DNA of 63,668 bases, filler included, from Reticulomyxa filosa (Eukaryota; Protista; Foraminifera), in NCBI GenBank assembly GCA_000512085.1. It is 19 parts of 19 records of this genome, joined end to end, with 100 filler letters (N's around TTAATTAATTAA, not from the genome) between each part and the next. Parts side by side here need not be neighbours in the genome. Positions count along the whole stretch, not along the records: positions 24,174 to 28,567 come from ASPP01003678.1; positions 28,668 to 29,814 come from ASPP01045024.1; positions 29,915 to 31,110 come from ASPP01005993.1; positions 31,211 to 32,780 come from ASPP01034648.1; positions 32,881 to 35,567 come from ASPP01028250.1; positions 35,668 to 39,194 come from ASPP01000739.1; positions 39,295 to 45,663 come from ASPP01018581.1; positions 45,764 to 61,303 come from ASPP01000652.1; 11 more parts are not named here. One strand, written 5' to 3'. Below, one piece after another: positions 22,060 through 48,700 of this stretch (position 1 is its first letter; each line of letters begins with the position of its first letter). Position numbers and translations under genes: made by a program. The notes beneath the pieces were generated by a model, which ran no database searches, was not told the origin of the DNA, and saw only the letters and a program-made list of their open reading frames with translations.

Positions 22060-22215
22060 TTATGATTTATTGTTCACTACACATTATCCAAAAAATGTTG
22101 AAGTAATTGATTTGAAAACAATGAAATCATTGACTGGAATCAAAAATAACATTTACCAAAAGAAAACCATATATTTGGAATTGATTTCATTGTTTTGTGC
22201 CATTGACAATAAATT
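22060..22215 (+). pseudogene. Degenerate remnant of a repetitive (Kelch-like) protist gene family
   Basis: DLLFTTHYPKNVEVIDLKTMKSLTGIKNNI..FGI..HCFVPLT with frameshifts. The family assignment is from recollection only and needs a search. Confidence 0.3.
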
Positions 22216-24989: not shown

Positions 24990-27960
24990 TAGTTGCTGTT
25001 GAGACTGGTCGCTTATCGAAAATATCGTGTACTGCGCATATGCGCAACTTTGGATTTGTCATGAATGTTCTGATTATAGTAGTCATGATCAACGAAGACG
25101 CCCAAGAATGAATAAAAATGGTACTAACCAATCATCAAATCGCAAATAGAATATTTGATATACTAGAAATGTCGTGCAAAGTGTGTATCTTATCAAAAGG
25201 AACGAGTTTTTCCAATTACAAAGTCAATTTGCTATCGTGGAACAGTTCGACAAGATTTTTCCGATAAGTCCCGAAAAGTTAGATCTGGTGCCAGACGACG
25301 AAAGAAAGATCACCAACAAGAAAAAAGAAAGATGGCGATACTATCAAAGTAGAAAAGATGGTTTCGCAACGGCTGAGAGAAGAAGTGGAAATTGTTGAAA
25401 AAGAATGTGTAAGTTGTTAGGAAACACTTACTTACGCCAATTGAGAAAACCACTACATTGGAAGAATGAGTGGTTCAACTTGGATGAGGGATTGTGCGAA
25501 ACTCCGTCGGTATATTGACAGCCAAGAAGAGAAATATGATGAGGAGAAGGAGGAGAATGATGATAATGAAAAAAAGAAAGAATATCGAAGATTCTCGTTG
25601 GATCTGTTTTTTTTAAAAAAATGTTTGCAGATTTACTGAATGTGATTATGCACTGGATCTTCACATCCGCGAGTGTAGACTTCGTGTTTCCAGATATTCA
25701 CTACTTTCCCATAGAACGCTCCAATCAAAGAAAATGAAAAGTGTGTGGAAACGTCCAGCAGTGGCACCCGAACATTTGAAAAGAACTTGGCCATCATATG
25801 TCATACAAGTCTCTGGCGCTTTGCCAACAATCATCCGCAAAGAGGTAGTCTAGCTGCGATTTACATGTTCCAACGATCAAGTGAAGAGTGATTGTTATAA
25901 AAATAGGGCTAACTACTAGTGTCAAAACTGGTCGTGTGCGTACGCACATTCGCGACTTGGATTTTGTTCGTGCATAAGCTGATGGTAGTAATCGTTCGCA
26001 CGAATACGCTCAAGAAAGAAAAAAAAAAAAGAACAGTACTCAATACTTCATTAAATCGCAAATAGAAGCATGTGGATGTCTGGAAACGCCTGCTCAAAGT
26101 GTGTCTCTCATTACAAGGGAGACTATTTTTTTTTAAGTACGAAGTCCATCAGCTCTAGTGGAATAGTTGGACAAGAATTACCCGAGCAGTCCCGGAAAGT
26201 TGGATCTTGGTGCATCCAGACGACGAAAGAAAGCTCACCAAAAGAACAAAAAAGAAAGAGGTTGATACGCGTAAAGTGGAAAAGATTGTGTCGCAACGAC
26301 TGCAGAAAAGAAGTGGAAATCGATGAAAAAAGAGAGTGGAAGTCGTTGGTAAATACATACTTCAGTAATCAAGAAAACCACAGCATTGGGAGAACATTCC
26401 ATGTGAAAGTGGTTCAACCTGGTGGAGGAGTTGTGCGAAACTCCGTCAATAAATTGGCAACCAAGAAGAATAATGTAAGGAGAATGAGAAGGAGGAGGAT
26501 GAAGAGAAAGAAGAGAATATCGAAATAATATTCGCGTTGGACCTGTTTTAAAAAAAAAAAAAAAAAAGTCTACAGATTTACAATCGCTGGCGTGAAGATC
26601 CAGTGCATAACCACACTCAGTAAATTTTGTGTTTCCAGATATACACTACCTTCATATAGAACGGCTCCAATCAAAGAGAATGAATAAGTTGTGGAAAATC
26701 TTGCAGTGGTAACTGGAAAAAATTGAAAGAAATTAGCCATCAACATATGCGCACACAAGTCTCTGACGATTTGCTACGCCAACAATGATCCACAAAGAGG
26801 GCGCCGAACTGTGATTTACAGACTCCAACCAACAAGTGAAACCCGTTTGTCATAGAAATGATGCTAAATAATCGTGTTGAAATTAGTAGTGTCTGTGCGC
26901 ATATTCGCAACTTTGGCTTTTTAGTCGTCCGTGTGCTGCTGATGGGAGAAATGATGAGATCACGAATGACATAAGCATTATAATCGGTGAAAAGAGAACT
27001 GTTTCATTTTCTGTCTCAGTTCGGTAAAGATCATTAGCGCTTATTGACAGACTCAAGGCGCTCGACTCTTGAAGTGTGAACTACAGACGGCGTGTTGAAT
27101 GCGACGCAATAATTTATATTCGTTACGTTATCACAGTAATTGGAAAACATTAAAATGCATGTCGTTAAGTTTAATTGGATTCGAGTCGATGTGATTTTAA
27201 ATTGTGAATCGCGTAGTGACTTTGGCGTACTCAAAAACGAATAGTCCAATAGTGAAAAAGAAAATAAGAATGGTATCCTCTATCATTGAATCGACAATCC
27301 AAATATTGTCGAATGAGCACATCATGATGGATGCAGAAATTTTTAAGCGTGACCATTATCCAACGCCAAAGCGTGTCCATCATTACAATGGCGACAAAGT
27401 GAATGAACGTCGTATTTAGAAATTATCTATCCATAAGATAGCATTGAAATTTTTGAAAAAAATTGTCCCAGTTCAATCGTGGATAATATTTCTTTTTGGT
27501 AAGCTTCGTGTGGGGCAGCACCAAGATCCAGGAAAGAAAGACGTGGCGCAAAAAAAAAAACATATCAACATCACGACTGGATTGATCGAAGAAATGGAAA
27601 AATGGAAGACAAAGAAAAAGAGGATGCGCGTTATGAAAATAATCACATATATGATCAAGTAAACCACCTCACATGGAATCATTCTCCCGATATTGTTGTG
27701 GCTCCAATTTGGTAGAATGAGTTTTGCGATATTCAAGTCAAGATCATTAGCAAATAAGAAGGAGATGATGTGAAAGAAGATTATTCAAGGCCATACCGTT
27801 GTTGGATGTATTTTAAAAAAAAAAACAAACAATCTGTCGACTTTACTTTGATTAGGAATAGCTCTCTTCACACCCCACAGTAGCAACTTTGCGAATCTTA
27901 ACATGGACTGATTTCATATAGTGCGCCCCCTCAATAGAAACTACTGGAAGGTGTGTGTAA
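24990..27960 (+). pseudogene. Degenerate tandem array of a ~0.9-0.95-kb coding unit (two full copies, one truncated start, one more diverged copy), unknown protein domain
   Basis: Anchors recur: HMRNFGF/HIRDLDF/HIRNFGF at ~25038, ~25946 and ~26900; CAGACGACGAAAGAAAG at ~25292 and ~26217; TGTGCGAAACTCCGTC at ~25493 and ~26432; TTTCCAGATAT at ~25687 and ~26632. A diverged copy lies at ~27215-27960. Many stops and frameshifts. Confidence 0.8.
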
Positions 27961-29169
27961 CAATGTCAAGCGCAGTCCAATGATAATGACAACGACGATA
28001 ACGATAACGCAGTTCATGTTCATTCTACTCATTTGTCAATTACTTTAATACATTGGACTGGTATTGTGTGCGCCGATATTTGATCCACTGCTGTTGGTGT
28101 CGCGGAAGAGAGGTAGTATTGTTGCACCATTTATTGCAAAAAGCAACAAGTCGTACCAATCGATAATGGATCGACGATTCAAAAGTCGCTCTGTTATTTG
28201 CCGAACAAAACAAAAGCTGGATATCTGCAATGTGTTGGTGGCGCTGGACCCTGCTGAGTGCAATATTTGTGTCAGCGGTCGAGCCCCCCCTCTCTATTCT
28301 TTCATCTCACCTCTCTTATCTCAAAGACGCCGTCGCTGTGGATATGAGCGAATTGTTCGGTTATCAAAAACCGAATCACTCAAATTCGAAAAGTGGAATG
28401 GTCTGCCATTGACAAGACCGCCATCCAAAAAAGTAGTAGCTCTAGTGGAAGAGCCTTTCAATGATAATAGCTTCCCCAAGTAACAGTTCAATTGTTCCAA
28501 ATAACGGGATGGTTGATGGAAGCATTATCATTGAAACCAGCGCGCGCATTCCAACACAAGACTTCAANNNNNNNNNNNNNNNNNNNNNNNNNNNNNNNNN
28601 NNNNNNNNNNNTTAATTAATTAANNNNNNNNNNNNNNNNNNNNNNNNNNNNNNNNNNNNNNNNNNNNAAGACAAACAAACAAAAGCATATTTTTATATAA
28701 ACAAAAACGTAGATATAAATTTACAAACCCTTTTTTTTTTTCTCCATACGGGGTGGACTTCAACCACTTATTTTTTTTCATAGATGAAGTGTGTTAACAC
28801 TTTTTTTTTTTTCTTTGGATACTTGTGGCGGCGCTATTATAAAACAAATCACAATTTAATATATTAAAAAAAATAAATAAATAAATTACAAACCATTTAA
28901 ACCCCTTTCGGGGACTGGTTCCTCTCAATGCTCTTGCGCCGTCGTCAATGAATAACATCATTTTTTCTTTGGTCCGATGATTTTTCTTCGGCGATTTTTG
29001 GCACTAGATGATCGGCACCATTGGTGGAGTAGCGCCCGAGCATGTCAAATATTTGGTCTATGTATTTTTGTAAAAAGACAATCTAATAACAATATTACAC
29101 ACTATATATATATATATGCATTTGTATATGTACAGATACAATATTTATTTATACATGTATAAGATATAC

Positions 29170-29814
29170 CCAATGGCTGTTGATATATCTGCCAGTCCAT
29201 GTGTATGCCATCACGCTTTGCTCACGATTTACTGTTTGCATGTTGTCGCATGTGGATCCATGACATTCCATCGCCACTCCTTCCAATACACAAAAACCCA
29301 ATGCTCGTCCATGACCTCTGGTGAGTCTTGGTCACACACATCTCACCGAAGAGCGCCCACACAAAGCATATAACGGCGCACAATCGCCCATGAAAGATGA
29401 TGCATCCACATTGGCTAATCGCAAATCGACTGGGTTGGTCCATTGTCTCTATCATCCATTTGTGCCAAAAAAAATAGAAGCCATTAAAGTTCATTAATTG
29501 CGAAACTTGAATATGCGTTTGTTGCCTTCGGGACCGGTGCGTCGGCTTCAGATACAATTGTACTATAAATTCCGAGCCATGACATTGTAAATAGTGATAT
29601 GAATTTGAATTGGGGCCAAATTGGAACAGTCGCCGAGTCGAAAGGGTGCGACACATACATGGACAATCCCATATCACATTGTAAAGAATCAACCTTTCAG
29701 CAAATTTCGATTGGTCGTTGTTGTGAGTAATAAGCGTCACATATTGTCCATTCACACCATCCTTGCTATCATCACTTGCTTTAAATTTCCAATTGCGCAA
29801 GCATTCGTTATCAA
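29170..29814 (-). pseudogene. Pseudogene with tandem HECTD1-type SUN/F5-8 (galactose-binding-like) domains and a 75-bp internal inversion
   Basis: First domain: CLRNWKFKASDD..VTLITHNNDQS-[inverted]-RLFQFGPNSNSYHYLQCHGSEF. Second: FGTNG**RQWTNPVDL..VDASS..GRSSVRC..SGDGMSWIHMRQHAN. In-frame stops, frameshifts and a deletion are present. Confidence 0.75.
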
Positions 29815-30485
29815 NNNNNNNNNNNNNNNNNNNNNNNNNNNNNNNNNNNNNNNNNNNNTTAATTAATTAANNNNNNNNNNNNNNNNNNNNNNNNNNNNNN
29901 NNNNNNNNNNNNNNTTCTAATTCGGCTTCTCTGTTTGTTACGATTCAATGAAAACTAACTTTGAAACTACTTTGTACAACAACGGTCAAATAGCCTCGAC
30001 AATAACAATTTCCTGATAAACATATTTTGACACAATGCCTGAGCGATATGGAGAGCTGAATTTTGCTTTTTTTGGGTATGACTTGGGAAAAAAAAATAAC
30101 AAGGTATACGCATTTACTGTGCGTTAAAAAAATTTGTCCATTGTAAAATTGGTGAATTGATCGCTACTCCCTTGTGCATTTTTTTATTATGTTTGGCTTG
30201 ACTGATTATTTTTAGTTTTGTTTTTTTTTTTACTGTTTGCAAGGTGAGAATTTTTTACCTCACACCCTTGACAAACCGAGAAACGAGAAAAGCAAAATAA
30301 CTCAAGGAAAACTGATTTGTGATCTTTCTTATTGATAACGAAAATTGTTTGAAGGAATCAACAAAGGTAAATTCAATTAATTGAGGGAAAAAAAAGTAAC
30401 AATGAAATAGAAAATTTTGTTTTTTTTTGTCATTTTTGTTGAAAAATACGAATAAAAAAAAGTAAGAACGAAAAAAAAGATTTTA

Positions 30486-30830
30486 TCAATTATTTGGTTC
30501 TACTTGTTTACATCTCATTAACAACCATTCCAACATCTTGTTCAAAACTTCCTTTTGTTGCGGCTCTGTTTCGTTCAGCATGGAATAATCCAGGGAAGAA
30601 GTGTTTTTGTTTCAATTCTTTGGAGTCTTTGTCATTTAGTTATTTGTTGATGTTTTTATTTATTATTATATTATTCTGTTTTCCCAAAAATGAAGAACGG
30701 ATACTCAACCTTATGGAACAATTTTCTCATTTCTTCACTGACGTGCAAGCCTTCAGTAGCCAATCGTATAGTCAGACTGACAATGAAATGTAATGGATCT
30801 TGTTGCAAACGTAAATTTATCTTTAACACA
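30486..30830 (-). pseudogene. Monoglyceride lipase/lysophospholipase-like alpha/beta-hydrolase, C-terminal remnant
   Basis: QDPLHF..LTIRLATEGLHVSEEMRKLFHKVEYPFFIF, then KHFFPGLFHA/(frameshift)NETEPQQKEVLNKMLEWL*. This matches the Hydrolase_4 C-terminus with the catalytic His. The HGxxD segment is missing. Confidence 0.55.
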
Positions 30831-31239
30831 CATCGACAGTGCACTAAACAAAACACAGGGAAAAAAAAAAAGCATTTAAAAAATAAATCAAAACAACTTT
30901 TTTTTGTAATTTTTTTTTGATAATTTTCTTTATTGTTGATATTTTTAATTGACATTTTAAAATTTTGATATTAAAATATTGAAACTTTGAGTGCGTTTAA
31001 GAAAAGAGTTTCTGTTAGTATGCTAGTTGGTGGATCTAGAATTCGATCTGTAGTAAAGAAATTTAATATAATTATATCTTCGGTTTTGGCTGTAGTCATA
31101 TAAGTGTAATNNNNNNNNNNNNNNNNNNNNNNNNNNNNNNNNNNNNNNNNNNNNTTAATTAATTAANNNNNNNNNNNNNNNNNNNNNNNNNNNNNNNNNN
31201 NNNNNNNNNNTTTTTTTTTTTAAATAAAAACAAACTGTT

Positions 31240-32780
31240 TCAACCACGACATTTGATTCAAATTCAGTGGAAGAGGCCCTTTGTGCTATCTTCAAGAAGG
31301 TACAAGCATCCAACAGCTTGTTCAAAACAGTTTGGAGACGAGAATCAAAAGACTCGAGATTTTGTAGTGTGATTTCTTTGCAATACCAATTGCAATTGTT
31401 GATTTTGTTCTTGCACTGATTATCTCAATTGTTGCAATTCTCTTTGAACGTTGTTCAATGTCTTTGTGCTGTCCGTATCTTTATCCGTTTCACGGTTGGA
31501 AAGGATCGCAGACAAATTTGCAAACCAACTCTCTATTATCTTTTCCAGATCATTTAGCTCTTCCGTTGGCTGTTTTCTTTCTTCTTCCTGTAGTTTTTCC
31601 CCATACACACACATACGTCAAGATTTAACAATTCAATCCAAAACAATTTGTAATTTGCGTCAAAACAAAACAGTTCTATGTTCATTGCTTTGAGAAATTT
31701 CTTTGGATTTTTCCAAGTTTTTTTCTATTTCTTGTAACAATTTGGTAGGCAATAACGCTAATTCGCTCTATTTTTTTTTTAGGCAATAATAGCAATAATT
31801 ATTATTATTTTATTATAAACAAACTGTAAATGTTCTTGAATTTGATTCAATCAACGTTTTAATATCTTCATTTGTTTTGTAAGCAACTTCCAAATTTTTC
31901 AAAATTTCAGAAATGGATCTTTCGTCTGCTTCGTTGGCTGTTGCAGCAACTTGCTTTTGGCTCAGCATCAATTCGTTTAGTTTGTTTTGCAACTCCTCCA
32001 TTTTGATTGTCATTTCATCGTTGGTAGATTTGACCTGTTGGTCAATGGTTGTAAATTTATTTTGCAGCGATTGCCTCAAAAACACGTCTAGTTGTTTTTT
32101 CATCGTTGTGTTTCCTATTTACGTTATCATGTACAATTGTTTTTTTTTTGGTAATTCTGCGTTTTCCCGTTCGTTAAAAAAACACACATAAAAAGGTACA
32201 AAGATCACAATACTACAAACTGCAATTATTCATTGTATCCATCATGCTATTGAATTGCTTGATCGATTTATCTAACGACGTGGTGAGTTTTTCTAACGAA
32301 TCCTAATATTGATTTCTCTTTCAATAAGGGTAACATGATAATTTATTTTTTTTTGAAAAAAAAAAAAGCAAGTAATACCTGATTGGTGTTGTTGATGGAT
32401 GTTCCATTCGTGTTGGCATCAGTCTTTGTAGTTTCCGATATTTTTTCTTCTATTACCTTTTCTATTTTGGTTTTGTCCGCAGTTTGATTTTTGATTGACT
32501 CAGTGTCTTCAAGCTCAGCTTGCTTTTTCGTTTCGTTATTTGTTTTGATTTGTATTTACTCTTCGTTGCCATACGTTTCTATCTTCGACTTGGTGTCTTC
32601 TCTTGTCTTTTTTTTTGTTAGCAGTTTGCAACAGGAGTGATTTATTTTCATGTACGTATTGTTTTTTTTTCGAAATAAAATAAGTGTAAGAGCGTAATGC
32701 GAACAGGAGCCGAGTGAGTAATTTACAATTGTAGGTACAACTTGTCAATAGCGCCGCGAATGTACTCTTTCAAGTCATCA
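31240..32780 (-). CDS. Multi-exon coiled-coil protein (partial at both ends)
   Basis: Heptad-rich exons (31813-32103, 31420-31614 and others) separated by AT-rich introns. No recognised domain. Confidence 0.65.
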
Positions 32781-32880
32781 NNNNNNNNNNNNNNNNNNNN
32801 NNNNNNNNNNNNNNNNNNNNNNNNTTAATTAATTAANNNNNNNNNNNNNNNNNNNNNNNNNNNNNNNNNNNNNNNNNNNN

Positions 32881-35567
32881 CCACCATTAGAGGTAACAAT
32901 TTGGTCATGACAGGCAAAGTCAGTCCCTCTTCCAAATGATTTGGTGAATAGTCCAATTTGACCAGAGGTAGTGGCGCGTTTTATCAAAGACTCTTTTTCT
33001 GCAAAAGAATTCTCTTCTGTCATCACAATCGCAGTGCTCTTCATTGGTGCAAAGTCAACGGATTCGTAAAACTCGTTCAATGATTTTATGGAATCAAAGA
33101 ATACCAAAACAGCTCGCTTTGTTCCCCCCATTTTTCCAACAAGTCGGCAGTCAATTTCTGTTTTCAATGCATTAAAGTAGATGCTTTCATCTTCAATGAT
33201 AATATCAGGTTTTTCTGCAAAGGAAAGCTTATGCTCGCCAAACAAAGACGGTATATACGTAAATTTGGACACACGATAATCTTCTTCCACCACATTTTTT
33301 TCAATGTCGCTCAATGTCGTCAACGTTCCACTTACCCCCATGATGCAACAAAACTTTTTGGGAACCTCTGCATAAGAGAAGCTGCCAATTTGAAAGGAAA
33401 TAAAGACATTTTGTTTAAAACTTTCGTCACTAATCTTAGCTTGTTGATGTTCGTGATAGTATGCAAACAAAGTCTTGTATCCATAGCGAACATTGTAGGA
33501 AATACTGTTTTGGTCTTTGTATCTAATTTTGTCATTACTGACTTGATAACTTTGAGACGCAAATGTGTACACATCCCTCAACATATCTTTGATGGCTTCG
33601 TCCAACAACAAGTCCCATCCTTTCAATATGTTACAACAGGCCCTGTATACAAGTGATTCCCTCACTTTGTTCAATGTTAAACGAGGTTCTCGATTGCTCC
33701 AAATGAAATCAATCAATTGAATAATGGTGTCATGACGCAATGTCGCGGCCGGAGAATAGAAACTACCGTAAAACTCTTTACTAAAAAATATATCGACCTC
33801 ATCGATTAACAGTATTTTCGCACGAGCAGTACGAGCTGTTTCATTGAAAAATATTTGTTCTTCTTTTCTGTCTTCTCCTGAAAGCAGTAAGTGTTCCACG
33901 AGTTTGCGTACATCTCCTTCGTCATTGATAAGTCTCTCACAAAGTTGGTTAAAGGTGCCATAATGAATATGATCGGCTACTCCAAATGCATTAAATAACG
34001 GTTCAAAGATTTTCAAATCTCTACAGCTCAAGTATTCACTGTACGAAGCACAACCCACATCAAAGCCAAACAATGCCAATGCACATGCGGTAACGGCCAA
34101 GGTAATCGATTTTCCTTCTCCAGTTCCAATTTGAACAAAGTTGTTGATTAGTCCAGGTTTGCCTTCGTCAATGCCCAGCATACAAAAAATTGCAATAACC
34201 TGGGCAGCATGTGGCTTCAATAAATAAGACTCTTTGTCGTCCACACCGTTTGCATCGTGATAATATTGTGAATTTTGAAGTGTCCATAATGCAAAGATAT
34301 GTGCTAATAGACTCGACATGCTGTCTCGGATTGTTGCGTCCCACGTGATATTGTCTAGATTTTGTTTGCCTCTACGGCAATTCTTTTTGGCATTGCTTGT
34401 TAATACTGTAAAATTAGGCTCTTTTTCTACTAAGTGTTTGCTTATTAATTTATTGTACTCTTTATCAAATTCATCATATCTTTTTTTCAATGTGTCAATA
34501 GCATTTTGATTGCGAGCTGATTTAATTTTCTCCAAAACATGGTCAATTTCGATTGCCTTTGTCTTCGTATTGAACAACGAAATCAAATATCCTTTAAATG
34601 CCAAGTGTTCCGTAACAATCATTTCACCAATTCCAGTTAAGTCCTTTTCTAATTCAATCGCAAGTATGGCAATATTTGCACCACTTTTTTGTAATTTGAA
34701 AGTGTGCAAGATACCATCGATATCTTTGTTTATTATATCTTTAAAATTGAGAATATGTATGGACATTTCTTTCATTGCCAACAAATAAGGAGTGAGCACA
34801 ACACTATTCAAATTATCCATTGCTCCTTTTTTCAACTGTTCGATTCGGTTATGCACAAGAGTGTTGACAGCACTGATTTGAGATCCGACAATGTCCGAAA
34901 AGACACCATGCTTTTGCATGCAAGAGAGACATAGATAATAGATATTTATTTGCTGGTAGTCATGGGTTGTCCAATTCAATTTTTCTTTGATACTTTCAAC
35001 ACAGTCTTGCATTTCACTTTTGAATCTCATTTGACAACGAAGCAGCATATCAGTGTTGTTCACTTGGATTTTCAATTGCGACACTTGTTCAATAAAATCC
35101 AACTTTTTTTTCAAATGGCCAAAAAACCGATCTCGATCAGCATCATTTGTTTTGGTTTTGTCATTGATCATACCATCATTGGTGATTTCTTGTGTCATTT
35201 TGTTCAAATGAAAATTGAGGTCACGGACCATGTCAGAATAAGTCCATAGCTTGACAGTAATAGGATCACTGCTATTGTCATTATCGTTAGTACTAATCAA
35301 CAGCTTTGAATTGAAAAAGTACTTTACTTGTTGCAAAAAGGTTCCCTCGTTAGCAAATATATTCGTGACGTCGAATACAATAAATAACTGGGCAATGTCC
35401 ATATTTTCGACAATCCGTTTGAACTTATGCTGAAGCGAATGAAAACATTTGCCAAATTTGTTTTTCAATTCTTTGATCTTTTCGTTGAAATTGATTGGCA
35501 AAAATTGCTCCACACGAATGTCCACAAAAGTGGTTTTGGATTCCATGCATTCAATTATAAAAGCAAG
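32881..35567 (-). CDS. Eukaryotic SecA-DEAD-like SF2 ATPase/helicase (partial at both ends, intronless)
   Basis: KPHAAQ (Q motif), VQIGTGEGKS (SecA-type Walker A), YLSCRD, IHYGT, LLIDEVD (Walker B), GVSGT, RAVLVFF and TKSFGRGTDF. A long helical N-terminal region precedes them. The frame is open across the contig. Confidence 0.88.
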
Positions 35568-35667
35568 NNNNNNNNNNNNNNNNNNNNNNNNNNNNNNNNN
35601 NNNNNNNNNNNTTAATTAATTAANNNNNNNNNNNNNNNNNNNNNNNNNNNNNNNNNNNNNNNNNNNN

Positions 35668-36070
35668 TTTTTTTTTTTAACGTAGTTGTCGCAGCGTCTG
35701 CTCGGAAACAAAAGTTAGAATGCTTGCTCGTGATCATGAAGTTGTTCGCGTCCACCGTTTGTGCGCGACGCGCTTCCACTGCAATGACCACTTTCAACTT
35801 CATCGCGTCTGGACCCTCGGCTCCCAACAGAAAGTTGTTCGATAACACAAAGTACAGCTTTGTCCAGTCGTTGCTCTTCTTTGTGTCTTGGAATAACAGG
35901 TATCCCTCAATCGTTCGATTTTTCGGAAACGCACACTCTTTTGGAAATTCCATTGGAGTCGGCGGGGGATACTCAAACTGCGTTGGGGGCAACGCCGAAT
36001 ACGCTGAGAAGCAGCTCATTGGAGTACTATTTTTCAAATCTACTTTCGATTGGGGCTGCTGTGATGACAT
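35668..36070 (-). CDS. PH-domain protein (5' part)
   Basis: IEGYLLFQDTKKSNDWTKLYFVLSNNFL...LKVVIAV...NNFMITSKHSNFCFRAD matches PH strands. Cut by a spacer. Confidence 0.75.
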
Positions 36071-36603
36071 TAATATATATATATATCACTTCTTTCTCTC
36101 AAGGGGAAAAAAAAAATAATGTATGGGGGCAAAGTTCTTTTTCTAAAATCAAAACTCTTCTTTGTTTTCAAAAGTTCACTTTTCTTCAAAAATGGCGTAA
36201 ATGACAGACAAAGCTTTGATTGTCTTGAGAAAAAAAAAGATTTTCAAGTTTTCAAAAGTATTCTTTTTAACAATGTGAAACAAGTGATCTTTAAAAATAA
36301 ACTTGAATTATTATAAACTGCTTTGCAAAAAAGAAGGCAGCTCTTGTAATTTTCATTTTGAAAGTAACATCTTTCTCAAAAACTAGGGACAAATCTGAAA
36401 TTGAATTAAAAGATGAAAACTACATGCACAAAAGAACACCTTTTGTAAAAAAAACATCAAGTATTAAAAAAGTTAAAAAACAAGATCTATGATTACAAAA
36501 CAATACATATTTTAATCATTAAAGTTTTTAATTTTTTTTATTAAATGAATACGCACAAGCACAAAAAAATCACTTTATTTGTCCTTTAAGTTTTTGTGAG
36601 ACG

Positions 36604-37355
36604 TTAGTAAACGATTGGGATGAGCCGTGCTCTCCCTTCACAAAAATCTTCATATTCTTTTCCAAAATGCTCTGTCAGCAGTTTTTCTTCTTCTTGAATG
36701 CGAAACATCCCAAAATAAACACACCACAATGTTGCAACGCTAAAGGAGAACCAATCGTTAAAATACAGAGCGTCGCCAATATTTTGCAGCATTTGTCCAG
36801 TGTACCTACCAAACAACAACCGAAAAAATAAAAAGGGGAGAATATAATTATACGTAGTTTTTGTTTGAAGAGAAAAATAATGCGTGAGATAGATTAGTTT
36901 TGCTAAAGAAATAATTTTTTTTTTTAAAAAAAAAGCAAAAAGTAATTTCAATAAAAAAATAAAAAAACGTACCCCGGATGTCTCAAAATTCGATAGGGAC
37001 CAGTTTTAACCACTTTATGATCCTCACGGATTGACAACGAATACATAAAATGTTTGTCAAGTGCCCTTTTGGCCCACCAACGAAATACCCAACCAAACAC
37101 TCCCAAACCGACACCAATCATTTCACGCACTGTCCATGGCTTTTGGTCGGGGTACGTTTTATATGCTCGATAACACTCGTAAACCCATGGAATGTACATC
37201 ATTGCAAAAGACAGTGGCTGCCACACATAAAACATTAACTTGTTGTGTTTTTCAAAACTCTCATTTCGTGATGGTGGAACGCTCTCTTGAATCCACATTA
37301 TACTTCGAAGTACTGACCATGGTAAACGAGATTGTACTAATGTTATCGCGGACAT
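36604..37355 (-). CDS. Isoprenylcysteine carboxyl methyltransferase (ICMT/PEMT) family membrane protein
   Basis: Exons 37355-36973 and 36805-36604 give FRWWAKRALDKHF..SIREDHKVVKTGPYRILRHPG-YTG...RIQEEEKLLTEHFGKEYEDFC..RARLIP. Confidence 0.88.
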
Positions 37356-38179
37356 ATTCTTACGAGCAACAAAGGACGTCGAAAGACTCTTCACTAAAAA
37401 AGCACGTAAACACATACATGATTTCAAAAGATAGTCACTATAAAAAGCATTTACTTTCAAATGTTTTCAGATTCTTTTTTAATTGAAAAAGCAAAATTTA
37501 TTGGGAGTTGAGAAAAGATCAGTAAAATTTAATAAAGTAGTACAAGATACTATCCAATGGAGTCAAATTGACTCTAAATCTTTTTTATTTAATATAATTT
37601 TTTTATACTTCTTTTTTCGACAAACAAGTTGTTCAACCAAAGATGTATAACACGATACTAGAAAACGTAAGCAATTCAAATGAGTACGATTATGTGGCAT
37701 ATATTATCAAAAAGTTTTTAATCATGCAACAAAATGGAAATTATTATCCACAAATTTTTAAATATTTCAAAATTCTTTTTTACTTTTTTATCAATATAAA
37801 CATTTTATTTTTCACTCGAGAAATTTAATAAACATAATAAATATTATATTTAAGTATTAGAGAATGAACGATTTGCTAATGTTGGCATTATACATTTGCA
37901 AACCTTTTCATTTCAACATTTTAAACTTGATTCCGAACATATACTACATAATTGATCTTAAAACAAATCTAAACAAAAAGGACAAAGAATTTTGGCAGGA
38001 AAAATTTTATAAATGACCTAATGTTGATTTGTGTAAAACTAATTTTTGGAATGGATATATATAAAGATGTCAGCCTTCTTCATGCAGGCTAAAGTAAGGC
38101 AAAAACGAACGTTGGTATACCATTATCGGTAATACTTTGTTACTGTTTAATAACTGTGCTTTCTGTTGTGTTCAATAGT

Positions 38180-39095
38180 TAGAAAGACAAGTAGAGACAA
38201 TAATTCAAAATTGGATTCGAATTTTGGATGTTAAATTAGGATGTATTTCTGGTTTTGAAAATATGATAGCAAAATATGTTAATTTATTTGTGTTATTGAG
38301 AATACGAGTAAAATGTAAAATTTCAGTTAAATTAAAAAAAAAAAAGAATAGGTTTGACATTTTCGATTATTAAACGTCTTTCAAGGACACACAGGCGCAG
38401 TAAAAAGCGTAAGATTTTTGAACAGTGGCAGCGAGACTGTCATCATCGTGCGATAAAACAATTCGAATATGGGATATTCAATCGGGAAAACAACTTTAAA
38501 TTTTCAAAGACATTCTAACCACGTAAATTTGGTGGATTTTCTCCTGATGGATTCACGATTATATCATGTTCACAAGATAAAAGCATACGATTGTGGAATG
38601 TAGAATCAGGAACAGAATTGCTGAAATTATAAGGGCATTTGGATGCAGTATAGTATGTAAATTTTTCTCAATGGAAAATATATTGTATCAGGTTCATATG
38701 ATAAAATAATACGATTGTGGGACGTACATTCTGGAAAAGAGATTCAAAAATTACAGTGATATTTAAATGGAATAAGTAATGCTCAATTTTCATCAAATGG
38801 TAAAATGATTGTATCAGCATCTTTTGATAATACAATTGATCTATGGGATATACAATCAGACAAAATAATTCACAAAATATATGGACACAAGAATTACTTG
38901 TCATGTACAAAATTTTCTCCTGATTGCAAATGTATTGTGTCTTGCTCACATGATAGAACGATTCGTTTATTGGATTTGAAAACAGGACAAAAAACACAAA
39001 AATTGGAAGGTAATTCAAGTGTATATAGAATCGGTATTTCACAAGATGGAAATATGATTATTTCAGGTTCTCATGATAAGATTGTACCAGTGTGA
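38180..39095 (+). pseudogene. WD40-repeat pseudogene
   Basis: Leader IIQNWIRILDVKLGCI (same as the gene at 42272), then about six WD40 repeats with in-frame stops (e.g. TAA ~38497, TAA ~38630, TGA ~38757) and several frameshifts. Confidence 0.88.
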
Positions 39096-39315
39096 ATGGT
39101 CGAAGATATAACAAAGTTTTTTTTAGTGAAAAAAAATAATAGTAATTAATAACTTAATACTTATATTGTTTTCTTAGTGGCTTTATTCCATTTGNNNNNN
39201 NNNNNNNNNNNNNNNNNNNNNNNNNNNNNNNNNNNNNNTTAATTAATTAANNNNNNNNNNNNNNNNNNNNNNNNNNNNNNNNNNNNNNNNNNNNAAAAAA
39301 AAAAAAAAAAAAAAG

Positions 39316-40132
39316 GACCTTATATAAACGAGCGTTTGCAAGTAAATTTGAACGACCAACAACAATTTGTCCATTTGAGTCATTGCTGCTGGGAACACAT
39401 TTTGCGACATGTTTCGCAGTACATTTCCACTACTATTCTGTGGTCACAGCCAGTTGAAATCGATTGTCTTGACATTGCTCAAGAATTGCTTCCAATTTGC
39501 CCTGCAGATGTTATTGTTAAGAATATTACTTATTTTTTTCATTTATGTATTGATCTTTTGTTACGTGCATAAGCATGTATGTATGTGTGTACGTACACTT
39601 TGCACATGTGTTCGGAACGAAGGGTATCATTATCGAATACGTAGATGCCCCTTTTATGAATTATGTTCAAGTCAGTGGCGAGGCGATGATGAACAAACGT
39701 GAAAGATTCTTATTAACATACTGTCTGTCCACTGGCAATGATCTGGAACTTTTGGAAAGGGTCTTGTTGTTTGAAAAAAACTTAGACTATTTAATCCAAA
39801 ATGACCGACTTTTGCTCCAATTTGGATTAAACCACAAACACTTCAAAGAAATTCTTCTTTCCAGTAGCCGAGTCATGAATAAACTCCCCCAACCTCTCAA
39901 CTTGTTTGATATCTCATTGGACGTTTCCAAAATCACAACTCCTATGTACTTTCAAATGGGTAATGAAAAGTCCATATTTTTTGCTGGGAAAAATACTGTA
40001 ATGTGTTTTGAAAAAGAAAAAAGGAAGATCAAAAGCAGACGTCTTAAAAAAGAGGTTTTGCCTCGCAAACCTGATCCCACTCCTTCACCATCTCCTTCTT
40101 TCGATTTTAATCTCTTTGACCTCTTCGGTTAG
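39316..40132 (+). CDS. 3' exons of a hypothetical protein
   Basis: ORFs 39336-39572 and 39575-40132 are joined by a probable intron. No recognised domain. Confidence 0.5.
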
Positions 40133-40437
40133 TTTTTTTGTATCTTTTTCTTTTTTTTTAAATTCCCTTTAGTAGATTGGAATCAAATTGATCGAATGAA
40201 AAGCAATAAACATGAGGAGTCAACGCATTATTTTGCACAATTTACAGTATTACTTTTAATATTCAGAGCATATTTTAAAAAATATTCCTGTTTGCTAGTT
40301 CACATGGAACATGTGGCAAGACAAAGTTCGTTGAACAGAGGGGACTATGAGGAACAAAAAGTCGTTTACACATATAGATGCCTCTCCCTTGGAGTGTAAC
40401 TTTTTAATTGAAAAATTTTTGATTTCTATATGCAACC

Positions 40438-41292
40438 ATGCTGGCAAATCGCTCAGATAAAATAGTCGGAAAGCTCTTTACTAGGAGCAGCTCTTGTCTT
40501 GTGGTAAAGAGCAGGACGTTGCGAAATAACGTAGGCGTTATTGTAAAGCGACATATTCAAACACCAACGAAGACAATCGACTCATCGACAAGTAGTTTAC
40601 AAATGGAGTTGTTGCAAAGCATTGAAGGAATGGAAAAGATAGCAACAGAAAAAAAGAGCGCAGTATCGACCAGTGAAGTGATGTCATGGTTTCAGCAATG
40701 GCTTTCGACAGCAGCAAAGCATCCATGGATACTCGAAGCAAATGCAATGAGTTTATCCACAATATCTAGTGATAGTATCGGAGATGGGTTATTATATCCA
40801 GATTCACGTTTGGTGCTTTTGAAAGGCCAGGACAGCAACCAAGGCATATTTACATTTTTCACAAATTATGGGTCGAATAAAGCCAAGCAATTAACAAAAT
40901 TTCCCCAATGTAGTTTGTCGTTTTATTGGGAACCTTTGTATGCAGCGGTGCGTATTCAAGGCACAATCGAACGAACCAGTGCCAAAGTGTCCGATGACTA
41001 TTGGTATTCCCGGCCTTATCAGTCTCAATTGAGTAGTGCCGCCAGCGCACAAAGCCACAAAATGGAAAGTCGTGATGTGCTGAAGCACAAAATGAATCAA
41101 ATACACACGCAATGTCAACATACACAGAAAGTTCCTAGACCAAGTAATTGGGGTGGGTATCATGTCAAAGCTCTCAAAGTCGAATTTTGGAAAGGAGGGG
41201 AATTTCGCTTCCATCACAGAGTCATGTTCACCAAAGATCTTCACAAACTTTCTCAAAGTCAATATTGGCAAGCTGTTTGTCTTCAACCCTGA
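40438..41292 (+). CDS. PNPO: Pyridoxamine 5'-phosphate oxidase with a mitochondrial-type presequence
   Basis: EANAMSLST..PDSRLVLLK..FFTNYGSNKAKQL..LSFYW..VRIQG..YWYSRPYQSQ..SAQS..PRPSNWGGY..VEFWKG..RFHHR..LQP*. Intronless, with an Arg/Ser-rich N-terminus. Confidence 0.95.
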   Translation: MLANRSDKIVGKLFTRSSSCLVVKSRTLRNNVGVIVKRHIQTPTKTIDSSTSSLQMELLQSIEGMEKIATEKKSAVSTSEVMSWFQQWLSTAAKHPWILEANAMSLSTISSDSIGDGLLYPDSRLVLLKGQDSNQGIFTFFTNYGSNKAKQLTKFPQCSLSFYWEPLYAAVRIQGTIERTSAKVSDDYWYSRPYQSQLSSAASAQSHKMESRDVLKHKMNQIHTQCQHTQKVPRPSNWGGYHVKALKVEFWKGGEFRFHHRVMFTKDLHKLSQSQYWQAVCLQP

Positions 41293-42271
41293 TTATGTTT
41301 GTATCACATTACTTGCTTGTTTTCATTTCATTTTGTTTTTTTTAAAAAAAAAAAGATCAATTTTGTTCGATTACTATTGTCTCACTTCTTCCGATTTCAT
41401 CCGAATTCATTTCTTTCCATTGGAGTTTTCAAACTATGCTTCTAAAAAAGTTTACATTTTTGTTCAAGCCAATTTCCTTGGTTTCTAATAATCATGATCT
41501 TTCTCCTTTTCCTTCCTTCTTGCCCAGAACATTCGGGTTTTTTATATGGTCGGCCTTGTTGTGTTATCTTTCCTATCGTATGCTTGACACTTTTGCACCT
41601 TCAAAATTTACTCATTACAATTGCATTTCCGCAACTTTCGTTATATCCATTCGCTTTTCCTTATCTCTTTGAGACACAAACCAACACAATTTCCGATTTT
41701 GTGCTAATACTGGATAAAGCTTCTACAACAACTAACGATCAATTTTGTTGTCATTTTTTTTGAATCATGATTTTCCAAGTTGGAGAAGTGACAAGGTACA
41801 AATAAAATTAAAATTGGCAATTATTTCCTAATTTTAAAACAAAAGAAAAACGAAATTTGATTATTTGCTCTGTGTAAAAAAATTTCAATTTTTGACACAC
41901 AATGCATACATGTTATGCACTAGACTACTATGTATTTATAGTATAATAAAAAAGAAAATTGAACTTTGTATAGATGATTTTCTTCATGAAGAGACAGCAT
42001 TTGCTCCTCCCCTATGGAAATATTTATGATACAATATGTTAAATTAAAAAAAATGTTAAATTTGAATTTTTTTATCATACAAATCTCAAAAAATATCTTT
42101 TTTTGATAATTCTTTATACTTTTAAAAAAGTAATCATAGCATCAGCTTGTGTTTTATTCAAATATTTTCGTCAGTGTTTTTGACGTCCCCTCGTTGATCT
42201 TGAAAGAAAAAAGTTCAAACATTTTTTCATCTTACAATAATCTAAGACTAGCTCAAAAAGAAAAAGAAAAA

Positions 42272-43655
42272 ATGACCACTCATATAAATGAAAAACAAAC
42301 TTCAACACGACCAGCGTTGGTAAACTTCATTTCAATCTTTTCAAAAAGCTAACTGTTCACGTCTACAATGTACTTATATACTTGTTTTGCGTGAAGCTGT
42401 TAGAAGATATTCAAGTAGTTATTCAGCACTGGATTCGAATATTAAACATTACATTAGGATGGATCCATGATTTTGATAAAATTGTTGTCAATTATGTTAT
42501 GTTTCCTTTGTTTTTTATTTTCATTCAATCGCAAATGTATATTTGTTATAATTCATAATTACAATTTAAATAGGTAAGTACGGTCTTCATGTTTGACGTA
42601 TTTATTTCATCATCCAAATTAATAAATACATTCACTGGACATTCTGATATAGTGTGGAGTATTGATTATTCAATATTAGGTGATGGTCAATTCATCTGTT
42701 CTGGATCGGCTGATGAAACAGTTCGTGTATGGGATGTAGAAAACAACAAACAAATTCAATCATTTAATAAACATTCAAGTGCTGTAGCCTGTGTGAAATT
42801 TTCATCATATCATTATCATAACTATCGTCGTAATGTTATTTGTTCTGCATCGGTTGACAGAACAATTCGTTTTTGGGATTTCAAAGATAATAAGGAATTA
42901 CAAATTTTCAATAAACACACAGGTTGGATTGGCGGAATTGAATTTTCACCATTCAATGGTGGTAGATATTTATGTTCTGGATCTGAAGACAATACTATTT
43001 GTTTATGGGATGTTGAAACATCCAAATTATTGCATGTGCTCAAAGGACATAAGGATTGTGTTCGGTCTGTGGATATTTCATCATTACAAAGCAATAACAA
43101 TAAGAATGAAAGTAATAGTATTGGTGTAATTGGTGGTAATGGATATAACATTTGTTCTGGATCATTTGATAATACCATTATACTGTGGGATATTGAGACA
43201 GCCAAACAACTCATTGTCTTCAAAGGACATAGTAAAGGAGTGATGAATGTAAAATATGGATCAAATGAATTCGGTTGTGCAAATACAATACTATCTGGAT
43301 CAAATGATGAAAGTGTTCGTTTGTGGGATGTTCGATCTGGTGAACAAATTCAAGTGTTCAATGGACATGAACGTGGCGTGTACGCTGTTGAATATTCACC
43401 ATTTGTAATAAAGAATAACAGTGAAGCTGTTAGTGGTAATTCAAATGTGATATGTTCTGGATCAGTTGATAATACAATCCGTTTTTGGGATATTCGATCA
43501 AATAAGAATAAATTGCAAGCGATAAAGGGAGATGAAAAAAAAAAGGAATAATATGTCTTAAATTTATATCATCGAAAAAGAAAATAAAAAACAATGATTG
43601 TTGTGTTAATTTATGTTATGGTTCAAATGAAGGTCCAATTAATGTTTGGGGATGA
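42272..43655 (+). CDS. WD40-repeat protein (expanded lineage-specific family)
   Basis: MTTHINEKQTSTRPAL/EDIQVVIQHWIRILNITLGWIHDFDKIVVNY/ followed by six GH..WD repeats. A frameshift in the poly-A at ~43535-43544 precedes GIICLKF..GPINVWG* (TGA at 43655). Confidence 0.9.
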
Positions 43656-44574
43656 ATGCATATGTATAAAGTTTTATTGAATTTATAAAATTTTTTTGAA
43701 ATGACAGATAAGGATAAAATCTCAGTGTGTGCTACACAAACACAAAATCATTTTATGAAAGAGTCATTTTTATCGTACACTCAAAAACGAATACAAGTTT
43801 ATCTGTAAGTATTTAATGATGCCCATTTAGAAGAGAGTGTATGTAAAACTAGTGCGCAGCAACAAAGAACGCCTTTATTGTCTTTTTATGGAAACAAAAA
43901 GTACATTGGTGACGAAATATGTAAGCATTTTTGCAAATTTATTAATGTATCAGTATCGGCATCGCACTCAATTATATGTGGAAAGGGATACTTCTTTTTT
44001 GCTTGAACAAAAATATAGTAAGCATATTTTAGACTTGATACGTAGTCTTTTGGTTTTAACTCGCAAGGTAGCTGCATATGACACTAATGTGAAAACGCAC
44101 TCCAGTTTAAGTATAATATTTTGATTTCTATTTGTTGTTATACTTTCAAAATAAAAAGATACAAAACAAGTAATTACAATCGACTGCAAAAAAAAAGACT
44201 CGCTAAAATATATCACTATAAATATTTGCAATTTTTTTGATGAAAAATTGCAAATATTTATAGTGGTGCATTTTGGGGGTCTTTTGCGGTCGATTTTATT
44301 TAACATCTCTCTTATTACAACTAATACTCGACAATAAATGAAATTGTAAATTTACTCTTGTTCAAATATTAATATTTTCGAGTACGTTATTGTTATATTA
44401 CTTTCAAAAAGACACTTTTTGCATTTAAGATAAGAATGCTTAAAAGTAAAGAAAATAACCATTTAAACACAATCGATGGTAAAAAACCTTTATCATTCAA
44501 ATTGAAGAAAAACCCAATCAATTAATTTCCAAAAATCAGAACACTTTTCTCTTTCCAATAACCAAAACTTCTTC

Positions 44575-44776
44575 TCATAAGCCGTCACGCAAACGTAACA
44601 CCAAGTGTAACGTGCTTTCCTTTTGGATGTTATAATCACTTCAAGTTCTTCCATCTTCCAGCAAAGGTTAATCGTTGTTGCTATGGTATGATGCCTTCCT
44701 TGTCTTGGGCTCAACACGTCTAAGGTCCTGGTTTTGCCAGTCAAGGTCTTCGGGTGCTTAAAAATACAATTGCCAT
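44575..44776 (-). pseudogene. Ubiquitin pseudogene
   Basis: KTLTGKTRTLDV/../[42 protein letters not shown]. Two premature stops, two internal deletions, and GG changed to DG. Confidence 0.92.
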
Positions 44777-44939
44777 GCTCTTACACCAAATCCTTATAAT
44801 ATCAGTACCGCGTTTTTGAACTTCTAAAAAAGTGGGGCAAATCTTTCGTTTAAAATTTATACTTTATTATTGCACATTTTCTTGAAACAAGTCTCCAAAA
44901 TCACAGTTGAGATATAAATAGTAACGATATATTGCTTAT

Positions 44940-45663
44940 ATGAACAATGAAGGTATGTGTGCTTTTATTTTAACAGACAGACCAAAGTGTAAAGGAGGAA
45001 TGCAAGACAACGACAGCAACAATAATAATACCAATGCTACAAACGAAGGAGACAAGAAATATGAAAAGGAAATAAAAATATTGATTCGACTATTCGGTGA
45101 TTCAATTAACAAAGAAGAATTGAAACAGAAAATAATGAATAGCAATGGAAATATCGAATTGGTGATAAAAGAACTTGTTCGATTATCTGTTGAAAATGAG
45201 GTATATTACAACATATCTGTTTCATTACAATTGATGTTTTTTTGTATTAAAAAGATAAAAGCAAAATGAATGAATTAGGAAATATTAAATAGGTAGCAAC
45301 AAAATTATTTTATGACTTTTTTTTATCTTTATGTTTCTGTTTTGGAATTAATAGAAACAAGAACAAGAAAACACAATAAATACATTCGATGATAATAAAA
45401 GTATACAAAGAGAAATGGAAAAAGCAGAAATTGGAGAAACAAAACCAGGAATTAATTTGCAAGGATATTGCATCAATGAAATGTGTTTAGCATCAAAAGC
45501 GGAATTACCAGTATGGATTAATATTGGATTTAATGATATTACATTTATTTCAGATAAAACTTCTTTTAATTGTCCTGACTGTAAAAAAGAAACAGTTACA
45601 TCCATTGTTAAAGCAATGTTCTATAATTCCGAACATTCAATTTGTGCAAGTGGTGATTCAATA
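44940..45663 (+). CDS. Protein with a small helical (UBA/CUE-like) domain and a C-terminal four-Cys putative zinc domain (3' partial)
   Basis: YEKEIKILIRLFGDSINKEELKQKIMNSNGNIELVIKEL, then PGINLQGYCINEMCLAS..VWINIGF..FNCPDC. Several introns. Confidence 0.65.
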
Positions 45664-45799
45664 NNNNNNNNNNNNNNNNNNNNNNNNNNNNNNNNNNNNN
45701 NNNNNNNTTAATTAATTAANNNNNNNNNNNNNNNNNNNNNNNNNNNNNNNNNNNNNNNNNNNNATCATCTCTATAAGGTTGCATTTTAGGTGTCAACTT

Positions 45800-48700
45800 T
45801 CTTTTTTGTCTTACTGTAGTTGTTAACACACAGTATGGAGTTGTGCAACAATAATTATAATGCACATATTCGTTGGCATTGTGAGTGGCGCAGAGTTATT
45901 ACAAATGAATTGCGCCAGGAGATAGTAGCGAGCTCTCAAATGAAAAGGATTAGATGGGTATTACGATCAATACACATAGATGCGCAAATCCCTTGTCTAA
46001 CAAGAGCCAGTTTGTTTTCTGCTGTACATTACGGCTTGCAGTACCAAGTATGGAAGTTTCGGTGTGTGTTACTCTTTGTCGACATTTACATCGAATGGGG
46101 CAAAGTGTGTAAACTTTATCTGCACATAATTGGCATGTGGATATCTGATAGTATATCTATCTGATGGAAAATGTCGATTCTTTGGTTGTAGATATGGAAC
46201 AACGCAATGTCTGGATATTAAACATCCAAGCGTATGTCGTGTAGCGAGTGGACTTGAATAATATTGTGAGCAAAGTTTTGGACTTGCTTGTAATTCTTTC
46301 ACGTGTTGAAGAACTTGCTCACAATAATTTCCTATTTTCAATACGGGATCCTTCTCGTAAAGACATTGACATTTTATTCGATTCGGGGTAATGAAGGTAT
46401 TTCAAATGAATTGTTGGAAAGAATTGCGTGACTCATGTGATTGGACGTCACACTTGCGCATTTTCGCCATATGGCTTAATTCAACAGTTGTTCCATTTCC
46501 ATTCACCCCTTTTTGCAGACGCCAACGCTTATGCGAGTTGCAAGCTTTATCACGTACAGACGTGTCAAGAGCATAAATCTATACGACATTGTACAAAAGT
46601 TTGGTCTTACATATCCTCGAACGCCGGTTCGACTAGTGCAATCAAGCAATCAAGCAGTGTCAAAACGTACAAACAAGCTTGAGCACGTATACAAAAAAAA
46701 GGTCGCAATAAATCAAACAATACATCCATTGGTATTTATAATCCGGGGTTTGAATTATCGCAGCCTCTGGATGTGTTTGCACATTTGAATGCTGCCTCGA
46801 ATGAGTCGTACCAAGATAAAAGTGGATAATCATTGTCACATATGGGGCAAACAAGCAATCCTCCACGCGACGATACAAAGCTCTCCTTTAGATGGTGATA
46901 TTGTATATGTTGAAGTTGAAATCCAAAATACAATCTTTACGTTGTATCGCAAATATGGCCGGAACGACGGCAATGGTAGTCAATGGATCCCTATTTCTCA
47001 TACAACACGGTGCAATGTGTACAGACGATTCATTCAAACAAATGATGGGACAGTGTGCTATGACAAAACAACTCACAAAACCCACATATCGACTAGAGTT
47101 TATCCACAAGCGCAACGGAGGTAAGCCGCTGTTATTGTTGATCTGTTCGAAAAGGTTTTATCCAGATGAAATGAAAGGTTTAGAGATTGAAAAACAATTT
47201 GTCCACAGCATATCAGTATAATGTGTCCATAAGTTACAGATCTTTGATTGCGCAAGTATTGCACTATGCAAGATTTGAATGTTGTAGTGAAAAGTATTGA
47301 ACGTGATCAACCAACAACTTTTATAATATGATTTCCAATTCGTCCATATCGTTGTCATCGTTGTCGTTGGAACATTTGAAAAACTGTTTAATGTTACAAT
47401 TTGCATGTGATGACGTCAGGTAAACTAATCAACAGGGGATCATGCTCTTTCAACAAATTGACAATTGGTGTATTACAATGGCTTTGGCCTTTACATCCAT
47501 GTCTCTCGACATCATCATGTATTGTAAATTTCATCTCAATAGTGGATTGCTTTGTAGTAAATTTGCAAATCAATCCTTACATTTTGGATAGTGACTAGAA
47601 GACAAAAGCTTTACCCCGAGCTTTGATGAATATCTTTTAGCGATAGCTATATGGAATAATGGAGATATTCAAGTGGATGCATATTCCACATAAAATTTTC
47701 CTCATTGCGTGCAATCCTGCCATTATTCAAGCCCAAAAAGAGAACGGATAAACAGTGGAAGCAAAAAAAAGCATGGACAATGACAAGAAATAAGAAAGAT
47801 CAATCAGAAGTGAAGGATGAAAGTCAGTGTGATTATATGTTGTTTGTGTCATATTTTTAGTTGTTGAAATGTATCTCCATCAAAACAGTGTGAGCATGTA
47901 AAATGTTTTGCTTTAGATTTGAATGGAATATGAGAAAGAAAAAAAAAGAAACGAAAGAGCAAAAGCAGAAATTAGATCGATAGTAACAATATGGCAAGTG
48001 GCAATGTATTATATTAAAGGGAAACAACGATAACAATGTATCAATCAAAGAAGTACGAACATATCACAAGAATCAATGCGTGAAGATTATTGACACAACA
48101 AATCTATTGGAGACAAATATTTTTTGCCAAGACTATGCATATGCTATCAAAATCGATCAAACAAGCTTTCTCAAAGACTTAAAGTTAAATATTTATTATT
48201 GTCTTTTTTTTCTAAGCAATTTAAATTAATTTGTTGTGTTCTCTCTGAAGCACAAGAACTGAAATATGCTGAGACTACAAACAGTTGAGATTATGGTAAG
48301 CCAGACGATGAAGCCACAAGTGAATACAAAGAACGTGTACAAAAATGTTATTGCTGCCTTGTCAAAATGTAGAACATATGGCCCTCGATCATTAAATGCT
48401 TTAACAAACGAAAAAATAAAACTACTTGTCGGAAACCAAATGCTTTGAAATATTGTATTGAATATTAGAAGCTTGTGCAGATGCAACAATAGAAACGAAG
48501 TCGCAACAAGCTGAAGATGCATCCCTTTTTAAAGAAATTTGTGGTATCAATGGAACAGAACTATTTGACATCCTCTACATCGTAATGAAAGGCCATGGAC
48601 AAGTAATACTATTGATGACATTATTCCAAAGAAGAATCTTGGATTTCCACAATTATTGACATTGGTTTTGTTGTGATAGTTGATATGCTCCGAGATTCTC

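Follow-up and report, generated by a model that had tools for sequence, protein, structure and literature searches.

Introduction

Micro-inversions count as rare genomic changes. How they arise is under debate, in part for want of clean cases. We analysed two such inversions, at positions 26582-26619 (inversion 1) and 29633-29707 (inversion 2), in a stretch of 63,668 nucleotides (nt), filler included, from the foraminiferan Reticulomyxa filosa. This stretch, hereafter the window, consists of 19 contigs, each of 1.0-15.5 kb with a GC content of 25-38%, separated by N-linkers. A preliminary description of the window had proposed that an unusually active hairpin or template-switch process inverts short segments in the pseudogenes of this genome.

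The mutation class is already known (PMC8755829, PMC7954356, PMC8604942, PMC3123225), and the portions of these papers drawn on here describe four related systems. Between human and chimpanzee, Potapova, Kondrashov and Mirkin (2022) reported 59 micro-inversions genome-wide, of 17-33 nt in a search extending to 40, and template switching or microhomology-mediated break-induced replication was proposed as their source (PMC8755829). Their rate is ~2e-5 per substitution from the paper's figures and 2e-6 on our recalculation (PMC8755829). Like the R. filosa events, these are clean reverse-complement bubbles with arms of 3-8 nt at the breakpoints, some of them imperfect, but the R. filosa events measure 38-75 nt and their estimated rate is hundreds of times higher (PMC8755829). 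The short-range template switches of great apes (Walker et al. 2021) share the two-switch copying from the opposite strand; unlike both window inversions, which are long and length-neutral, they have a median of 12 nt (maximum 128), and 5.5% of them are length-neutral (PMC7954356). Abraham and Hazkani-Covo (2021), working on coding DNA of yeast, described spacer inversion and an arm perfection comparable to that at inversion 1, and possibly to that of an inverted repeat at 22115-22196; there, however, the spacers are 2-5 nt, the arms exceed 9 nt and the genes are working, whereas R. filosa has long spacers, short arms and dead copies (PMC8604942). The avian intron micro-inversions (5-38 nt; Braun et al. 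2011) are alike in lying in neutral DNA, in needing no stem-loop and in having locus hotspots; they arise at 0.25-0.39 per Mb per million years, and at 1.6 in hotspots (PMC3123225). In the openly searchable literature, with subscription papers outside its scope, we found no report of micro-inversions in foraminifera or in protist pseudogenes. What may be new here is the density of events, together with the pairing of long spacers and very short arms.

Two length-neutral inversions lie in decayed copies

Both window inversions sit in decayed hosts, have microhomology at their junctions and lack stable hairpins. From sequence comparisons, we consider that length-neutral micro-inversions of this kind are probably genuine fixed mutations that arose by jumps to an opposite-strand template, and that they are likely to be unusually frequent in the dead copies of this genome. 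Inversion 1 lies in a tandem repeat of the contig at 24174-28567 (contig 10).

25025..25965, + strand: copy A, decayed tandem unit of ~950 nt (blastn, 72% to copy B)
25637-25674, + strand: copy A, reference orientation of the 38-nt segment, arms 4/6 complementary (alignment)
25932..26921, + strand: copy B, which carries inversion 1 (blastn and alignment to copy A)
26576..26581, + strand: left arm of inversion 1, ATTTAC
26582..26619, - strand: inversion 1, a 38-nt stretch that is the reverse complement of its counterpart in copy A
26620..26625, + strand: right arm of inversion 1, GTAAAT, a perfect complement of the left arm, 2/6 positions unlike copy A
27150..27960, + strand: copy C, a more distant repeat member and weak outgroup, in copy-A orientation (alignment)

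When flipped, the segment was identical to copy A at 32/38 positions (blastn, 87% over 47 nt), versus 6/38 in direct orientation, and the change was length-neutral (38 versus 38 nt). The breakpoints adjoin inverted arms that are complementary at 6/6 positions in copy B versus 4/6 in copy A, and copy C has 10/11 nt in common with the spacer of copy A and nothing comparable with that of native copy B. Because the arms are perfect in copy B alone of the pair, and because copy C is weakly in the orientation of copy A, copy B is likely the derived copy, its arm perfected as two-switch copying predicts. After the flip, 730 of 934 aligned bases of copies A and B were identical (22% of sites differ). 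The differences showed no codon-position bias (p 0.29), and a Pfam search with the repeat unit of copies A and B returned no family; judged by its sequence, the unit is decayed. A single homologous protein was found for the contig-10 repeat among 1,126 candidates, a hypothetical protein modelled on a further decayed copy, which stops at 28210 and leaves the inversion 1 segment uncovered in its A/B form. Among the in-window DNA paralogue pairs, an antisense block appeared in 1 of 22 (inversion 1), the remaining pairs being mostly WD40 repeats, whose identity of 60-70% leaves the comparison little power.

Inversion 2 lies in a pseudogene on the minus strand of the contig at 28668-29814 (contig 11). 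The gene is intact in other foraminifera, where it encodes tandem F5/8-type-C or Sad1-UNC-like domains, with SPRY domains at the C terminus (Pfam on the intact homologues P0003 and P0044).

29201..29812, - strand: pseudogene fragment of the F5/8-SPRY gene (homologues, Pfam of intact homologues, tblastn lesions)
29624..29632, + strand: arm of inversion 2, perfect over 3 nt at the junction and 7/9 overall
29633..29707, + strand: inversion 2, 75-nt segment whose original reading is on the + strand within the minus-strand pseudogene
29708..29716, + strand: other arm of inversion 2

With the segment flipped, the pseudogene gave a gap-free match, 87% over 79 amino acids (aa), to the R. filosa paralogue RFI_30912 (P0002), and the lack of gaps shows that this inversion is also length-neutral. 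Inside the segment, 22/25 aa were identical to P0002 when flipped and 4/25 in the native orientation, while the flanks matched at 30/35 and 17/19. In comparisons with 42 homologues the flipped form scored higher with 39, lower with 2 and equally with 1, and all 6 R. filosa paralogues carry the unflipped form (0/6 have the inversion). Thus the observation that two segments are reversed within collinear flanks is confirmed, by nucleotide comparison for inversion 1 and by amino acid comparison for inversion 2. The further claim that each flip restores an in-frame peptide holds for inversion 2, but a coding origin was not confirmed for inversion 1, given the lack of a Pfam family and of codon-position bias. 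A search for metagenome loci of P0002 gave 63 pattern matches, 0 of them confirmed. Relative to intact P0044, the pseudogene also has a deletion of ~25 codons at ~29300-29320, apparently between two similar short motifs (a protein-level junction), which hints at microhomology-driven change of a more general kind.

Junctions show microhomology and no stable stem

Arms as good as those of inversion 1 occurred at 55 of 60,710 random positions (9e-4), and arms as good as those of inversion 2 at 86 of 60,007 (1.4e-3), by criteria chosen post hoc, after the cases were known. Neither inversion folded as a hairpin (z 0.33 for inversion 1 and 0.59 for inversion 2). The junction signal is therefore microhomology and not stem-loop extrusion, and with these z values neither matches inversion of a hairpin loop on a stable stem, a type familiar from plastid spacers. 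The short inverted repeats described as flanking each segment are present, perfect (6/6) at inversion 1 and with just 3 perfect nt within 7/9 at inversion 2, and a perfected arm was likewise seen at inversion 1, relative to copy A, but not at inversion 2, where the arms stay imperfect. Of the proposed origin, the template-switch part, guided by microhomology, is supported, but the hairpin part is not supported for these two inversions.

Reasoning from published models, we propose a two-switch mechanism. DNA synthesis would pause, or a break would be resected; the 3' end would then anneal to the opposite strand at a distance of 40-75 nt, where a few bases are complementary, and the interval (38-75 bases) would be copied backwards before synthesis returned at the other arm. 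By analogy, inversion 1, with its perfected arm, would fit replication template switching, and inversion 2, with its imperfect arms, would fit microhomology-mediated break repair at least as well as template switching. Short imperfect arms characterise the class for which microhomology-mediated break-induced replication has been proposed as the origin (PMC8755829). The inversions may persist because the copies are dead, with selection clearing them from working genes.

Reversible or programmed flips, by site-specific inversion or ciliate-like scrambling, would restore the gene in some nuclei or at some life stage. The local reading is indeed restored on reversal, and foraminiferan genomes are described as dynamic and endoreplicated (PMC10936158, on Allogromia and not R. 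filosa). We nevertheless regard such flips, which had been suggested, as the less likely alternative, to be a form of gene scrambling, as very improbable. The arms of the two inversions are just 3-6 nt long and have no motif in common, and no shared recombination site was found in them of the kind that a site-specific invertible switch would use. Stops, frameshifts and the ~25-codon deletion persist in the inversion 2 pseudogene after the flip (tblastn), so that reversal gives no intact gene, and ciliate-type scrambling was rejected on this ground. In addition, no coding constraint marks the divergence of copies A and B, each paralogue carries a different inversion at a different place (see below), and recombinases have difficulty in looping very short spacers, as was argued for those <33 bp (PMC8755829).

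Two further putative inversions outside the window

Because the window had been picked for its inversions, we ran a test outside it. This antisense-peptide test asked whether any part of one paralogue's predicted protein corresponds to what the aligned part of another would encode when read antisense, and was applied to all six other R. filosa copies retrieved of the inversion 2 family. The test recovered inversion 2 as a positive control. Residues 31-44 of RFI_36398 (P0032) were antisense-compatible with RFI_31000 (P0047) at 13/14 codons (0/300 shuffles), and residues 25-38 of RFI_31165 (P0048) were antisense-compatible with RFI_31000 at 10/10 codons and with RFI_36398 at 11/12 (each 0/300 shuffles). 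Both events span ~42 nt within collinear alignment bubbles and lie on other contigs, and the inversion differs, and is at a different site, in each paralogue. Since 42 of 44 homologues outside the Reticulomyxa set favour the RFI_31000 form over the RFI_36398 form, RFI_36398 is taken as the derived one. As a control, the test was run on the 14 non-Reticulomyxa homologue pairs of highest similarity (19 slices, 3,808 aa) and gave 0 flags, several of these pairs being uninformative because they were near-identical or too distant. We infer two ~42-nt inversions in RFI_36398 and RFI_31165, known from predicted proteins alone. The annotated R. filosa 'hypothetical proteins' P0016, P0027, P0032, P0046 and P0048 look like models of decayed copies that span frameshifts and inverted segments.

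How often such inversions arise

The core tree of the inversion 2 family has 1.07 aa substitutions per site, which corresponds to ~230 nucleotide substitutions if neutral. The two unselected events give a rate of 0.009 per substitution (95% confidence interval 0.001-0.031), or ~0.004 if the denominator is doubled for flanks beyond the core; ~58% of such flips would introduce a stop and escape the antisense-peptide test. If substitutions in birds accumulate at 1-2e-3 per site per million years, the avian inversion rate becomes 1-4e-4 per substitution (hotspots ~1e-3), ~10-70 times below the R. filosa point estimate. The probability of two events in ~230 substitutions is 1e-5 at the human-chimp rate, 0.0004-0.004 at bird rates (1.25-4e-4) and 0.023 at 1e-3. 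A high inversion rate is thus likely in the inversion 2 family, and the rate may also be high genome-wide. The proposal of an unusually active process gains from the two additional inversions in six paralogues outside the window, although the numbers are small and come from one family.

Real inversions occurring at an ordinary eukaryotic rate would give the same picture if their density here came from the choice of window and from one inversion-prone family. A Poisson calculation at 1-2.5e-4 per substitution expects several two-event windows genome-wide, and bird loci include hotspots at ~6 times background (PMC3123225). Set against this are the low probabilities of the two outside events at bird rates, the fact that inversion 1 belongs to a second family, and the lengths of all four events (38-75 nt), which are at least those of the largest bird (38 nt) and human-chimp (33 nt) events. 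We consider an ordinary rate unlikely.

Several results weigh against an unusually high rate of genuine inversion. If the rate were bird-like, chance would place two events in 2-28 of ~1,600 windows of this kind, so that a high rate cannot be read from the window by itself. The antisense-peptide test found no inversion in the contig-10 paralogue P0046 or in two paralogues (P0049, P0050) of the pseudogene at 22 kb, a result also expected under an ordinary rate. Compared with more distant copies, the score of the RFI_36398 event was reached by 6/300 shuffles with P0027 and by 155/300 with P0016. All three family events fall on terminal branches, with 0 common to several copies, and an artefact would look alike. 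Since the inversion 2 family was entered via an inversion, it may itself be a hotspot. Window-wide scans add a modest excess of perfect arms of at least 10 nt (18 versus 9.7+-2.5 in 60 shuffles) and a non-significant number of gapped hairpins with a score of at least 12 (4 versus 1.5+-1.2, with 3/53 shuffles reaching 4).

The singleton, terminal-branch position of every event is also what library, amplification or assembly artefacts, such as strand-displacement chimeras fixed in low-coverage contigs, would produce. The R. filosa assembly is highly fragmented, with 50,809 scaffolds and an N50 of 3.6 kb (PMC13746701), and inversions make up 85% of amplification chimeras, with priming at complementary stretches of 2-21 nt (PMC1855051). 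However, such chimeras are described as having a single junction and an intervening deletion (PMC1855051), whereas both window inversions have two junctions, no deletion and unchanged length, so that the anatomy of a strand-displacement chimera is absent. A process blind to function, acting once per 0.8-1.2 kb, would moreover leave six long frames (9 kb) free of stops with P 0.002-0.017, where four of the six frames had been picked for their openness and the two whole-contig frames alone give P ~0.13. We judge an artefact origin the less likely explanation, and a rather improbable one.

For fixed mutation by opposite-strand template jumps, we put forward a numerical version tentatively and with somewhat less than even confidence: R. 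filosa may acquire microhomology-guided inversions of 40-75 nt in DNA free of selection at ~1 per 100-300 substitutions, a rate tens to thousands of times that of vertebrates. Error-prone break-induced or end-joining copying or repair of gene-family copies in the many-nucleated cell could be the cause. If true, micro-inversion would rank among the leading ways in which genes die and new antisense-derived peptide arises in this lineage. An unusual route of repair or copying would then be indicated for foraminifera, and the paralogue alignments and gene models of R. filosa would often be distorted. At ~1 per kb of dead DNA there would also be thousands of junctions with which to tell replication template switching from break repair. 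If the events are artefacts, they reveal that a rhizarian reference genome in wide use contains a systematic error.

Candidate hairpins and other inverted repeats

Two long hairpins had been put forward as further cases, and a third inverted repeat was found in a pseudogene.

28456..28536, no strand: hairpin with 13 perfect nt, 19/20 arm nt with one bulge, 42-nt loop (hairpin scans, fold)
46262..46326, no strand: hairpin with arms of 12 perfect nt, 41-nt spacer (hairpin scans, fold)
22115..22196, + strand: 15-nt perfect inverted repeat in a pseudogene, spacer not inverted (perfect-arm scan, paralogue comparison)

Both hairpins are present and fold well in isolation (z -3.7 and -3.4), but they were not confirmed as inversions and their strength is near window-wide chance, the best gapped hairpin (28456-28536) being equalled in 5/53 window shuffles. 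No homologue covers the loop of this hairpin among those of the contig-10 repeat, whose single protein homologue ends before it. The 46 kb hairpin region matched no Pfam family and no PDB sequence. Codon usage, when modelled, gave no orientation for the hairpin loops, and the model was weak on the known inversion too. The candidate hairpins add little to the case for an active process. They also bear on the statement that the features lie on independent contigs, which was overstated: the four features are on three contigs, inversion 1 and the hairpin at 28456 both being in 24174-28567, and contigs 10 and 11 resemble each other weakly over 146 nt.

Low-complexity arms were removed first in both scans; the gapped scan missed the repeat at 22115, which the perfect-arm scan found. 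The right arm of 22115-22196 has a frameshifting 1-nt deletion relative to two paralogues, a candidate that may represent arm perfection. This repeat lies in a pseudogene (22025-22231) of a multi-copy R. filosa family (RFI_00737, RFI_38178), which may be Kelch-like; Pfam gave no such label. Copy B carries an 11-nt inverted repeat (26745-26755 / 26894-26904) that is perfect there and imperfect in copy A. A perfect palindrome at 44214-44265, with 23-nt arms and a 6-nt loop, sits inside an imperfect palindrome of ~130 nt (44171-44302; 75%, E 4e-18), which had no Rfam match and is a candidate fold-back element or templated duplication. At 48595-48739, an imperfect inverted repeat (25 nt, spacer of 95 nt) ranks second among the gapped hairpins of the window.

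Other features of the window

The nearest protein relatives of the window sequences are R. filosa gene models, at identities of <=87%. Rfam gave 0 matches in the whole window, Pfam gave 0 families for six frames of three regions (18 translations), and a PDB sequence search with the inversion 2 frame and P0047, as with the 46 kb region, gave no match. The start of contig 10 (24193-24335) resembles the downstream end of contig 11 (28674-28819) over 146 AT-rich nt at 67-70%; the similarity is weak (E 1.6e-4 at default settings, 1.3e-9 at permissive ones) and is possibly a common repeat. A connection between contig 10 and the F5/8-SPRY gene was considered and rejected, tblastn giving no support.

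Two contigs are open throughout on the - strand, one at 32883-35567 (895 aa, with a SecA DEAD-like domain) and one at 12613-14178 (522 aa, with weak ankyrin matches). WD40-repeat genes lie on three contigs, at 4545-4784, 38440-39094 and 42574-43548, with a DNA likeness of 60-75%, and other fragments in the window correspond to myosin, EF-hand, gelsolin, PNPOx, ICMT and mitochondrial-carrier sequences.

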